Shown: positions 49,580 to 54,327 of the stretch, piece after piece
How positions within the stretch are numbered: the first letter of the stretch is position 1
Layout: each line of letters starts with the position of its first letter
Source: Thermodesulfobacteriota bacterium
GTDB lineage: Bacteria; Desulfobacterota; Desulfobacteria; Desulfobacterales; C00003060
NCBI GenBank assembly: GCA_034189385.1
Contig: JAXHVD010000009.1
Span: 30,821-94,820 of the forward strand
Length of the DNA: 64,000 nucleotides
Direction of reading: 5' to 3'
Translations under genes and position numbers: made by a program
The notes under the pieces: model-generated
Seen by the model: only the letters and a program-made list of their open reading frames with translations
What the model was told of the DNA's origin: nothing
Databases searched by the model: none

Positions 49580-50197
49580 ATGAGGAGGGGAATTGCCAAG
49601 ATCCTGGCCTCAAGGCCATGGAAGCAGATTGCAGACGAGAGCCTGGTGCCGGCTGCCGTATTGCTCCTATTGCTTGAAAAGGACGGGGAAGAGCATATTC
49701 TTTTCACCGAAAGATCGCAAAAGGTGGAGTACCACAAAGGCGAAATCTCTTTTCCAGGAGGAAAAGTGGATCCCGGTGACGAAAGCCTGGTTGAGACTGC
49801 TTTGCGGGAAAGCGCGGAGGAGATCGGCCTTTGCCCTGAAGACGTGACTATCCTGGGAAGGATGGACGACATGGTGACACTGACTACTGGGTTCATTGTT
49901 ACTCCTTATGTGGGGCGCATTCCCTACCCCTACCCCTTTCAAGTAAACAGAGACGAGATTGCCGCGTTGATCTTGGCGCCCTTGGAGTCCCTGTCCAAAG
50001 GCTGCGGTGGAGAGGCCCCTCCAGTGATCCTACCAAAAAAAGGCATTGGGGCCCACTGTTTCCGCTATGGCGACCATATCATCTGGGGAGCCACGGCCCG
50101 AATCCTACAACAGTTTCTGGACATTACCACGCCCACCACGGAGCAGGAACACCATGATATCGAGGCCAGGGGTAGTGCCACCAGTAAGGGTGGATAG
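49580..50197 (+). CDS. CoA pyrophosphatase (Nudix, NudL-like)
   Basis: HKGEISFPGG, TALRESAEEIG Nudix box, IWGATA; start uncertain. Confidence 0.9.
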   Translation: MRRGIAKILASRPWKQIADESLVPAAVLLLLLEKDGEEHILFTERSQKVEYHKGEISFPGGKVDPGDESLVETALRESAEEIGLCPEDVTILGRMDDMVTLTTGFIVTPYVGRIPYPYPFQVNRDEIAALILAPLESLSKGCGGEAPPVILPKKGIGAHCFRYGDHIIWGATARILQQFLDITTPTTEQEHHDIEARGSATSKGG

Positions 50198-50699
50198 GCT
50201 CAAAGCGTCTCACGTCGTCACTTTCCTTGGGCCATAGATGAGATTCCACTGCCTCGATGACCGGGTAGCGGTAGACCCGATTGCCCAATGGCTGTTCCAA
50301 AACCTCTGATACGGTGCCCCCCACGGTGAGTTTTCGTCCCTTGTTGTAGATTTCCGGATCCAGAAATCCTTGAACGCGCACCAGAAACCGGCCCTCGGAC
50401 AGGTCTCGTGACCTTGGTTTGTTTCGAGAATCAAGGGGTGCCTGTAACAGGGTGATGAGGGTGGCTTGGGGTTCGTTCTTGGTTTCCAGGATATGGCCGC
50501 CCAGGATCACCTTTCTTCCCTTGAAGGCTTCTCCGTCTTGGAGGAGTTCCTTGAAAGGAACGGCGGGCCCTACCTGTCGTTGAAACTTTTTCGACGGGGT
50601 GGACGCGCAACCGGTGAGGCCAGAAAGGGCCGGCCCCAAAAGGAGGCAGATGGCGAGAAAAGGACAAATGCGATTCATGGACGTACGAGTGCCTTTCAT
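50124..50699 (-). CDS. Slp-family outer membrane lipoprotein
   Basis: Lipobox LTGC, VILGG, SEGRFL, GFLDPEIY..GR.LTVGG, YRYPVI. Confidence 0.9.
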   Translation of the reverse strand: MKGTRTSMNRICPFLAICLLLGPALSGLTGCASTPSKKFQRQVGPAVPFKELLQDGEAFKGRKVILGGHILETKNEPQATLITLLQAPLDSRNKPRSRDLSEGRFLVRVQGFLDPEIYNKGRKLTVGGTVSEVLEQPLGNRVYRYPVIEAVESHLWPKESDDVRRFEPIHPYWWHYPWPRYHGVPAPWWAW

Positions 50700-51248: not shown

Positions 51249-52868
51249 CTATGGAGAGTGGATGGGCTCTACGAAGCAGTACGGGTCTCGCTCTTCAAAG
51301 ACGTTGCGGCCAACACTGTGGGCAATGGCAAGACATCCGCCACAGACAGGACGAACGGGGCAGGATCGGCACGCTTTGCAGCCGGAGCGATACTGACAGG
51401 CGATGTGAGAGTCGTAGATCTCGGCCAGGCTCTGTTTCAAAACATTGCCTATAAGGGATGGAAACTTTCGGCAGGCATGGACTTCTCCGTCGGACAAGAG
51501 GGCCATGAAGTTGAATGCAGCGCTGCAGCCGTAGCCGGCGCAGCCCCCAAAGAGGTCCATTCCCTTTTGGTAGCGCAACAGGTTGAGCAGGTTGTCCTTT
51601 AAGCCCATGATGGGATTGCTCTCGGCCGCCTCCATATACGCTTCCAGAAAGGCCCTGTAGGCGTCCCGAGGGGGAAGATGAAGCAAGGCACCTTCACCCA
51701 CCATGGAAAGGCGGTTGAAATTGAAATGATCAGTCCTGTTGCGAAGCATCTCAGCAAGGGGTAGTACCTGATCCATGTTGTCCCGCGTGAGGGTGAGCAT
51801 CACCATGGACGTGATGTCCAAATCTTGAAGCAGCCCCAGGAAGTCCATCACCCGGCGAAAGTTTCCAGGGCCCCGAATCGTGTCATTGTGTTTCTCCAGA
51901 CCTTCCAAGCTCACCTGAAAAAAGAGGGGGGGCTCTATGTCAAGGAGCTGCTCCATCTTCTCTAGTGGGGCCGGATTTCCCAGGATGGCAAGGCCAAGGC
52001 CCCGATCTGATGCCCCTTGATAGAGTTCCAAAAAATGGGTGTAGAGGAGAGGATTGCCGCCGGTGAAAGAGACCTGGCCCCTCACGTGTCTACTCAGGCA
52101 GAAGTCCCGCAGGTCGTCTAGGATTCTCAGGCCCTCATCCAACTTCAGAGGGGTCCTCTTCGCACGGTCGTAACAGTGCTTGCAGTGAAGATCGCAGACC
52201 TGGGTAACGTGCCACTGGAGCGTGAAGACCGGAGACGACAAAAAGCGTTGGTCTTTGATCTCGCCCAGAGGAAAGGTTTCAGGATCGCGGCGAATCCCTG
52301 ACGGCGGCGCTACTAGGAGCCCTCTGTGAAGGGCCCGATGAATGGCACCGTCCACGGCGCCCACGGGATGTCCGCCGATGTTTGCTGCCTCCTTCGGATC
52401 GATATTTTCGACTACCAACTTCAGTACCAGCAGATCCTCATCTGAAGCAGCTCGGGTTCGGACGTGCCCCGTCTCCGGATGGCGCCACACGAGGATGAAT
52501 GCCTCGCCCGGTTCCGGCCTGGCAGAGGGCCCCTCACCTGCCTGCACCATGGCGGGCAGATGTTTCCAAGAGACCTGGAGCAATGCAAGGGTGGGATTTA
52601 CGCTAAGCTCCTGGATCCTGTCGGTCGTGTCTGTTGCCTGGTGCTTCACTTGATGGATCGTCGACTCTAGGCGGGCAAGTTCGGCGAGAAAATGGGGCAA
52701 CCCCAAGGTGTCCTGGTGGCGCTTCAGTATATCAGGGAAGGTGTCGGGGTCGGGATTTCTCCCGCACAAGGCGACTATCTGTTCCCATGTGTGCGCATCC
52801 ACGCATTTTCGGCATTTCTCAAACATGGCCCCAATGTCCTGTGTCGGGTGGGTGCGCCCGGGAGGCAT
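51249..52868 (-). CDS. sbtM: Selenobiotic-family radical SAM/SPASM peptide maturase (SbtM-like)
   Basis: Long N-terminal extension, FTLQWHVTQVCDLHCKHC, GGNPLLY, SPASM cysteines GCAGYGC, HACRKF, CRSCPVRPVCGGC, DPYC; precursor gene directly upstream. Confidence 0.88.
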   Translation of the reverse strand: MPPGRTHPTQDIGAMFEKCRKCVDAHTWEQIVALCGRNPDPDTFPDILKRHQDTLGLPHFLAELARLESTIHQVKHQATDTTDRIQELSVNPTLALLQVSWKHLPAMVQAGEGPSARPEPGEAFILVWRHPETGHVRTRAASDEDLLVLKLVVENIDPKEAANIGGHPVGAVDGAIHRALHRGLLVAPPSGIRRDPETFPLGEIKDQRFLSSPVFTLQWHVTQVCDLHCKHCYDRAKRTPLKLDEGLRILDDLRDFCLSRHVRGQVSFTGGNPLLYTHFLELYQGASDRGLGLAILGNPAPLEKMEQLLDIEPPLFFQVSLEGLEKHNDTIRGPGNFRRVMDFLGLLQDLDITSMVMLTLTRDNMDQVLPLAEMLRNRTDHFNFNRLSMVGEGALLHLPPRDAYRAFLEAYMEAAESNPIMGLKDNLLNLLRYQKGMDLFGGCAGYGCSAAFNFMALLSDGEVHACRKFPSLIGNVLKQSLAEIYDSHIACQYRSGCKACRSCPVRPVCGGCLAIAHSVGRNVFEERDPYCFVEPIHSP

Positions 52869-53042
52869 CGCGGCCCTTATGGGAAGAAGCAGACGCCGTC
52901 GCTATGTTGCCATCTTCGCAGGACCCCTAGAAACGGTCCTAGTGGATGGAAGGTGTTGTGACTCGGGCGAAAGACTGCCTTTCTCCCGGTTTCGTTTTCT
53001 TAAGTTCATGATCAGTGCGCAGGGCACTGCCCCTCGTTTCCA

Positions 53043-53285
53043 TTACTTGCTACGGGTGCTACCTGCACCGGAACCACCACTTCAAGAGGAGGTTCCCGGT
53101 GCCTTTTGCGTCTCGCTGGTGCCACCTGCACCAGTCTGGCCACTTCAGCTGGTTTTCCCGCTTCAGCTCGTTTGCTCGGCTGGCGGATGCTTCGCGCAAC
53201 CAGGCAGGGCAAGGCCGGCTGTGGCTAGCAGGCCGGCAAGTCCCAGGCTGCCGAGGACCTTCCTAAGGTGTTTTACGTCCATCAT
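53043..53285 (-). CDS. sbtA: SbtA-like RiPP precursor with three in-frame UGA (selenocysteine) codons, 80 aa
   Basis: MMDVKHLRKVLGSLGLAGLLATAGLALPGCAKHPPAEQTS-U-SGKTS-U-SGQTGAGGTSETQKAPGTSS-U-SGGSGAGSTRSK, ending in TAA; GAAGGGGG RBS; UGA at 53163-53165, 53145-53147, 53082-53084. Confidence 0.85.
53055..53069 (-). promoter_or_regulatory. Bacterial SECIS-like hairpin after UGA 3
   Basis: GGTGC-AGGTA-GCACC, about 12 nt after UGA. Confidence 0.75.
53116..53134 (-). promoter_or_regulatory. Bacterial SECIS-like hairpin after UGA 2
   Basis: CTGGTGC-AGGTG-GCACCAG, about 11 nt after UGA. Confidence 0.75.
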
Positions 53286-53832: not shown

Positions 53833-54327
53833 ATGGGAATGAAAAGAGTAGCAGTTTTGGTGATGCTTTGTTTTTTTACCCTTTCGGGCGTGAGCTTTGC
53901 AAAAGGGCCTGGAGCCTGGGGTGGATTTAAGATGCCTCATGGCAGATGGTGGCACGCGCCTGAAATCGTTGAGAGGCTGGATGTTACTGCTGATGAGCAG
54001 GCCACACTTGACGCCCTTGCCCTGGAAAGGGAGAGGGAATTGATTGATCTGAAAGGCGCTGTGCAAAGGCAGGAGCTTGAACTGGAGACCATTCTTGACC
54101 AAGCTGACTTTGATCGGGCTGCCTGCCTGGACCAGTTTGACAAGCTGCTGGATGCCCGAAGGGAGGTCGCCAGGAAACGATTCGGCTTCCATGTGAAAGT
54201 TCGTGAGCTCCTGGGCCTTGACCGGTACCGAGAACTCCTCGGAATGCTTCGGGATCGTCACAAGGATCGCCGCAGAGGAGAGGCCGGACTGAAAGGGTCT
54301 CTAAGAGAACGCATGGCCTGTCCATAG
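53833..54327 (+). CDS. Periplasmic Spy/CpxP/heavy-metal-sensor-like protein
   Basis: AAGGAGG RBS, signal peptide, GRWW..PEIVERLDVTADE, helical body. Confidence 0.8.
   Translation: MGMKRVAVLVMLCFFTLSGVSFAKGPGAWGGFKMPHGRWWHAPEIVERLDVTADEQATLDALALERERELIDLKGAVQRQELELETILDQADFDRAACLDQFDKLLDARREVARKRFGFHVKVRELLGLDRYRELLGMLRDRHKDRRRGEAGLKGSLRERMACP

Follow-up and report, generated by a model that had tools for sequence, protein, structure and literature searches.

SECIS-like hairpins in an sbtA-type precursor gene and a candidate loop-out form of SECIS sharing in its relatives

A precursor gene with three in-frame UGA codons

The window, by which we mean the whole 64,000-nucleotide stretch of DNA analysed, carries on its minus strand an sbtA-type precursor ORF of 80 codons (53043–53285) with three in-frame UGA codons: UGA 41 (53163–53165), UGA 47 (53145–53147) and UGA 68 (53082–53084). 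An earlier note, made from the sequence alone, had recorded the last two, both of which are indeed in frame; it missed UGA 41 (residue U41) and a decayed fourth unit described below. The leader (53196–53285) is a hydrophobic stretch ending in a lipobox-like LPGC, in which Cys30 is the predicted site of lipidation. It matches the whole of the TIGR04081 model (positions 1–27 of 27; 28.9 bits, E 6.7e-7), falling 1.6 bits short of the 30.5-bit cut-off, while a profile of related leaders gives 37 bits. The three cores read TSUSG, TSUSG and SSUSG, i.e. Cys/Sec cores in a Gly/Ser context. The protein collection entry for this peptide ends at 40 amino acids, at the first UGA, and gene callers truncate these genes.

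The gene downstream encodes SbtM, a radical SAM/SPASM maturase of 539 amino acids (51249–52868, minus strand) with a CxxxCxxC motif at residue 225; it exceeds the TIGR04082 threshold (728.9 bits, cut-off 350). The 4.13-Mb source genome encodes selB, selD with one in-frame TGA, and tRNA-Sec. Its other TGA-containing genes (genome G000) are selD itself, three FlpD/MvhD-family genes and two molybdopterin oxidoreductases (C29:10803-11726, C23:185122-185487, C28:20105-20473, C62:112270-112632, C23:30789-32042 and C34:66552-68006). Divergent from the precursor lies an ORF of 164 amino acids (53833–54327, plus strand) with a signal-like N-terminus and no NCBIfam match, which may resemble periplasmic helical proteins of the Spy/CpxP type. 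Downstream of sbtM, the product of 50124–50699 (minus strand) matches the Slp lipoprotein family just under the cut-off (75 vs 88.45 bits).

The two units around UGA 47 and UGA 68 are an ordinary example of the published SbtA/SbtM thio(seleno)oxazole RiPP system ('selenobacteriocin', TIGR04081/TIGR04082), with which the locus shares an adjoining SbtM above its cut-off, UGA cores with a SECIS-like hairpin directly downstream, several predicted Sec per peptide and probably the leader family. Published accounts place a SECIS right after the codon, count two or more Sec and ascribe the formation of oxazoles to SbtM (PMC9204691, PMC11002830); a catalogue row of PMC13188914 lists 2 Sec. The window departs from these descriptions in having three UGAs rather than 2, in its Ser-Sec-Ser-Gly cores as opposed to GGUG/SGUG, and in the Ser-Sec of all three cores where the published SbtM substrate is Gly-Cys/Sec. 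It also differs from the system as there described in that one UGA lacks a SECIS of its own and a fourth unit has decayed.

For comparison across the family we used a first set of 190 sbtM loci, including the best 80 of 227 and the best 80 of 308. Precursors were found in 159 of 191 sources (window included), 170 in all, of which 150 distinct ones were kept; adding loci L218–L249 raised this to 176 distinct precursors. Three UGAs occur in 66 of the 176 and a lipobox-like pattern in 94. The residue preceding U is family-wide G (186 sites), S (166) or A (35).

Hairpins behind UGA 47 and UGA 68, and the case of UGA 41

Two SECIS-like hairpins lie in the coding sequence on the minus strand. Hairpin 1 (53116–53134) has a 7-bp stem and an AGGUG loop 17 nt after UGA 47 and encodes GAGGT; hairpin 2 (53055–53069) has a 5-bp stem and an AGGUA loop, likewise 17 nt after UGA 68, and encodes GAGST. 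The repeat that the earlier note had described is present: the 30-mers at 53147–53118 and 53084–53055 lie 63 nt apart, are identical at 23 of 30 positions and place a GGUGC-AGGUR-GCACC hairpin at the same distance from each UGA, the first stem extending to 7 bp. Its comparison with E. coli fdhF is also correct, as fdhF reads TGA, 11 nt and then GGTTGCAGGTCTGCACC, with the loop again at 17 nt. The 5-nt loop with G at position 2, the 5–7-bp stem and the 17-nt loop distance agree with fdhF and with the bacterial SECIS consensus in PMC13188914; unlike the fdhF element, the window stems have no bulged U. The pattern GGTGCAGG-NN-GCACC occurs exactly twice in the genome, both times at this locus.

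We compared the hairpins with the bSECIS model, which specifies a loop of 3–9 nt, a stem of 4–16 bp, a G in the first two loop positions, 16–37 nt from UGA to loop and a minimum free energy at or below −7.5 kcal/mol. Loops of 5 nt, stems of 7 and 5 bp and the G of AGGUG and AGGUA all agree with it, as do spacings of 17 nt, 17 nt and, if U41 shares hairpin 1, 35 nt. Hairpin 1 folds at −10.9 kcal/mol with pair probabilities of about 0.96, and hairpin 2 at −7.1 to −7.9 kcal/mol depending on the segment folded. Competing folds exist in the naked RNA when folded computationally, and in the 33 nt after U68 the lowest-energy structure is one other than hairpin 2. Shuffle z-scores of 43-nt segments are −1.96 for hairpin 1 and −0.50 for hairpin 2, values that are uninformative for single hairpins. 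Because the single folds are modest against shuffles, the evidence beyond chance is comparative. Within the genome, selD carries a CGGGA loop at 16 nt and one fdh gene a GGUCU loop at 18 nt, a comparison that the earlier note had proposed and that counts in favour of the SECIS reading. A search of Rfam returned sub-threshold matches only (RsmY, 19.5 bits vs 57). Three wetland metatranscriptome contig sets had word shares of 0.06–0.12 and some near-identical pieces over sbtA; we discarded them since contigs cannot show the strand, level or RNA nature of the molecule.

It had further been proposed that the core was amplified together with its recoding signal. Beyond the 30 constrained nt the two units agree at just 11 of 27 bases, so a duplication of this pair is plausible and would be old. 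In relatives L053, L071, L096, L109 and L246 units are 80–86% identical and look recent. Joint amplification fails as a rule, as cores have also been added without a signal: the block carrying U41 is one case, and 65 of 387 family U sites lack a local hairpin. On the other side of the TAA stop lies a likely decayed fourth unit (53013–53042, minus strand), with TGG at 53042–53040 and a 6-bp stem at 53029–53013 whose CCUGC loop lacks the G that the bSECIS model specifies. Its 16-nt spacing equals that of L083–L085, which carry a terminal UGA and, in the 3' UTR, a canonical hairpin with a CGUUG/CGUGG loop; the shared spacing makes the decay of one further unit in the window likely, apparently through loss along this lineage. 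L081 and L082 likewise have a decayed fourth unit, with the stem retained, the loop G gone and the UGA lost or out of frame.

UGA 41 lacks a dedicated hairpin. It sits within an 18-nt block that is missing from L081 and L084, and the nearest loop is that of hairpin 1 at 35 nt. We consider it likely that UGA 41 borrows hairpin 1, within the published range of 16–37 nt. Local hairpins at the 387 family U sites are perfect in 303 cases, imperfect in 19 and absent in 65; 14 of these 65 lie near the next hairpin, at 26–36 nt, and are found on scattered branches of the SbtM tree. An alternative fold that would give U41 its own hairpin (−8.5 kcal/mol, loop at 17 nt) shares bases with hairpin 1, which dominates the ensemble at about 0.96, and is not conserved in L001, L082, L083 or L085.

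Alternatively, Sec might be inserted only at UGAs with a local hairpin, with UGA 41 mostly terminating translation to give a 40-residue product, or acting as an inefficient selenium-sensing throttle. The missing hairpin speaks for this, as does a distance twice the 17 nt of UGA 47, UGA 68 and fdhF; moreover, a loop-out helix of the kind discussed below is at the synonymous null here (41 of 100 controls are as good), and we do not claim one at U41. Against it stand the 14 near sites on scattered branches, the 35-nt distance inside the 16–37-nt model, and the intact downstream cores and hairpins, which would be useless if UGA 41 terminated. We regard termination or throttling as unlikely and retain sharing of hairpin 1 as the reading for UGA 41.

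RNA pairing and peptide motif across the family

The earlier note had supposed that the GAG(G/S)T residues are constrained by RNA structure and not by peptide function, and the family bears this out. We scored as local a hairpin with a 5-nt loop at 14–24 nt after the codon. In the 150 precursors, 162 of the 205 internal U and 87 of the 109 terminal U have one, against shuffle means of 6.0 and 2.4, whereas only 2 of 90 Cys cores do (shuffle mean 2.2). Every one of the 87 terminal loops falls beyond the stop codon, divided 48/30/9 among the three frames; on visual inspection the remaining 22 terminal sites have a hairpin with a 4-nt loop. Of the 205 internal U, 160 are followed by the motif class [GSD]A[GV][GS] and 80 by GAG(G/S)T proper; the class stands behind none of the 109 terminal U and behind 1 of 92 Cys cores. 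In mixed peptides (L004, L089, L091, L092, L098) the motif stands behind internal U cores and never behind Cys cores.

Codon choice fits the pairing. In a peptide-anchored count over the 176 precursors, whose rows are related and not independent, the first Gly is GGT in 88 of 88 GAG(G/S)T motifs (family background 534/1779) and Thr is ACC or ACT in 88 of 88 (background 493/797). Homologues that keep the residues and lose the pairing were not seen; the reverse was found, with 440 of 440 stem pairs kept in the 88 motifs. In 182 wider motifs the five stem pairs are kept in 182, 178, 182, 182 and 174 cases, and variants such as SAVST, GAVGT and DAGSV retain pairing by two-sided swaps (G-C/A-U and U-A/C-G/A-U). 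Conservation of the loop G is no independent result, as the filters impose it. There are exceptions to the coupling: one Cys core in L087 retains both motif and hairpin, and L001 and the all-Cys L243 paralogue retain a 3'-UTR hairpin with no UGA in front. Hairpins can thus persist once their codon is gone, or may serve a further purpose.

Such peptides often contain Gly-rich linkers, and GAG(G/S)T could in principle be kept for peptide function, as an SbtM recognition site or flexible linker, with the hairpin a side effect of codon choice; its presence behind 80 of 205 internal U cores fits that idea. However, 91 of the 92 Cys cores and every one of the 109 terminal U lack the motif class, the hairpin continues past the stop codon in three frames, and wobble positions are fixed for pairing, so that we consider this explanation very improbable. 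GAG(G/S)T should not be taken as an enzyme-recognition motif. At the level of sequence, the sbtA family is a clear demonstration that recoding RNA can pass for a conserved peptide motif.

We give equally little credence to suppression that would place Cys or Trp at the UGAs (a SECIS-dependent Cys suppressor is known for some deltaproteobacteria), or to a gene in decay: Cys-only and mixed precursors do occur (23 of 176 lack any U, a few of these truncated) and the fourth unit here has decayed, but the Sec machinery is complete in the genome and the hairpins follow UGA, not Cys codons.

We are therefore highly confident that the hairpins are bacterial SECIS elements for SelB-driven Sec insertion at UGA 47 and UGA 68 in this SbtA-type precursor, and that the GAG(G/S)T residues are passengers of the RNA structure. 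While the ribosome stands at a UGA, SelB-Sec-tRNA docked on the hairpin loop would supply Sec; hairpin 1 would serve UGA 47 and, shared, UGA 41, and hairpin 2 UGA 68. We predict export of the peptide and a lipid anchor at Cys30, and by analogy with the published Gly-Cys/Sec reaction SbtM may oxidise each Ser-Sec pair to a seleno-oxazole. As to the role of the product, a surface-tethered selenium- or metal-binding peptide is our guess. Elsewhere in the family, L125 carries adjacent Cys-only and Sec-containing sbtA paralogues ahead of sbtM, and the second precursor of L174 (minus strand) is a Cys-only SbtA paralogue with an additional KCPKC motif.

UGA codons far from a hairpin in relatives

Besides the 14 near sites, the 65 U sites without a local hairpin include 50 at 38–177 nt from the nearest hairpin and 1 for which no hairpin was found. 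These far cases occur in relatives only, none in the window, and lie outside the 16–37 nt that reviews give for bacterial SECIS; according to the reviews an internal Sec also requires a SECIS within the ORF itself. At these sites RNA from about +12 to +16 forms a helix with the last core that closes a few nucleotides short of the hairpin. Function of a 3'-UTR SECIS in E. coli was reportedly described in 2005.

We assessed this pairing with a register test (ungapped, at least 7 of 9 pairs, synonymous-codon null, 500 runs), dropping L230-37 for its imperfect local hairpin. Among far U, 32 of 49 sites pass (null mean 6.6, maximum 13), compared with 8 of 34 Cys cores (null 6.2, maximum 10). Under a looser ensemble criterion 39 of the 50 U sites scored, against 14.2 expected, yet so did 13 of 34 Cys cores (6.2 expected); as this test raised Cys cores too, only the stricter register test separates U from Cys. 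Cognate arms pair more strongly than swapped ones (−14.7 vs −11.5 ± 0.35 kcal/mol, 48 sites). Two paralogue families have GGUG/CACC and GGAA/UUCC outer helices, and in the latter 11 genes end in GGT TCC, a codon pair found in 0 of 34 background last cores. Across 20 sequences of these families paired cells make up 95.7% and covariation is higher than in any of 500 shuffles, a signal that mostly reflects one difference between the two families.

In an SbtM tree without support values most far cases fall in one clade, with separate cases in L131/L228, L075, L007 and L163; labelled records of the main clade are Nitrospirota. Five such genomes encode a full-length bacterial-type SelB and a SelD with TGA, and the majority of these selD genes form a local hairpin. 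Some sites that had looked like orphans (L018, L117, L054, L140, L075-36, L064-37 and L230-37) turned out to have imperfect local hairpins and were reclassified or, for L230-37, dropped. We also considered whether a 3'-UTR hairpin retained after loss of the last UGA (L114, L227, L235, L237, L243) proves distal use, an argument weakened by L001 and the all-Cys L243 paralogue, which retain the hairpin as well.

From these patterns we lean towards a model in which the bacterial SECIS of sbtA genes acts at a distance, one 3'-UTR hairpin serving two to four UGAs located 38–117 nt upstream by a loop-out. An arm starting 12–16 nt after each UGA would pair with the last core and expel everything between, leaving the hairpin parked at the mRNA entrance of the ribosome; in three-UGA genes, with a copy of the arm at each upstream UGA, the helix would be rebuilt in turn, like a relay. 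RNA constraint of the GAG(G/S)T kind would then apply to the linkers G-D-A-Q and K-E-T-P and to the last Gly-Ser/Thr codons, and UGA 41 of the window would be a short-range form of the same sharing. The far UGAs may instead rely on a different local signal or on SECIS-independent read-through: 17 of 49 far sites do not pass the register test, and in L001 and L243 3'-UTR hairpins persist without UGA. Loop-out nevertheless remains the reading that we favour for the far sites.

One downstream element for several UGAs, as we infer for the relatives, recalls the archaeal and eukaryotic 3'-UTR SECIS of Lokiarchaeota hdrA-vhuD and SELENOP. Unlike those elements, the one in the relatives is bacterial in type and goes with a full-length bacterial-type SelB, and its reach would come from a base-paired loop-out within the coding sequence. 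Our literature search, which covered sources other than the primary SbtA papers (Haft & Basu 2011; Lewis et al. 2021), brought up no bacterial SECIS described as distal or looped in; per-core SECIS elements may already be shown in those two papers. SECIS sharing and its likely loop-out route in relatives were not found in print, and this lead matters more than the window units. Loop-out sharing is not covered by the published bacterial spacing model. If a helix does deliver one 3'-UTR hairpin to several distant UGAs, predictors that rely on the 16–37-nt spacing miss selenoproteins, and synonymous instead of residue changes might suffice to make recombinant multi-Sec proteins.

The layouts vary among relatives. 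sbtA genes with 2–3 UGAs whose one hairpin lies in the 3' UTR and has a GGUC loop of 4 nt are found in L041, L043, L044, L052, L055, L061, L063, L067, L114, L136, L139, L146, L223, L227, L236 and L240 (for example L055:2206-2337). In this group the RNA in between forms a loop-out helix, and two paralogous precursors often precede sbtM. Four-UGA precursors occur at L230:3207-3398 (minus strand) and L231:1232-1357; their first UGA has an imperfect local hairpin, and for the middle two there is only the 3'-UTR hairpin, 60–117 nt away. In L161, L162, L163 and L174 the terminal UGA is close to or directly before the stop codon and a perfect 6-bp helix lies between the upstream UGA and the hairpin; in L161–L163 the 3' arm of that helix is untranslated.
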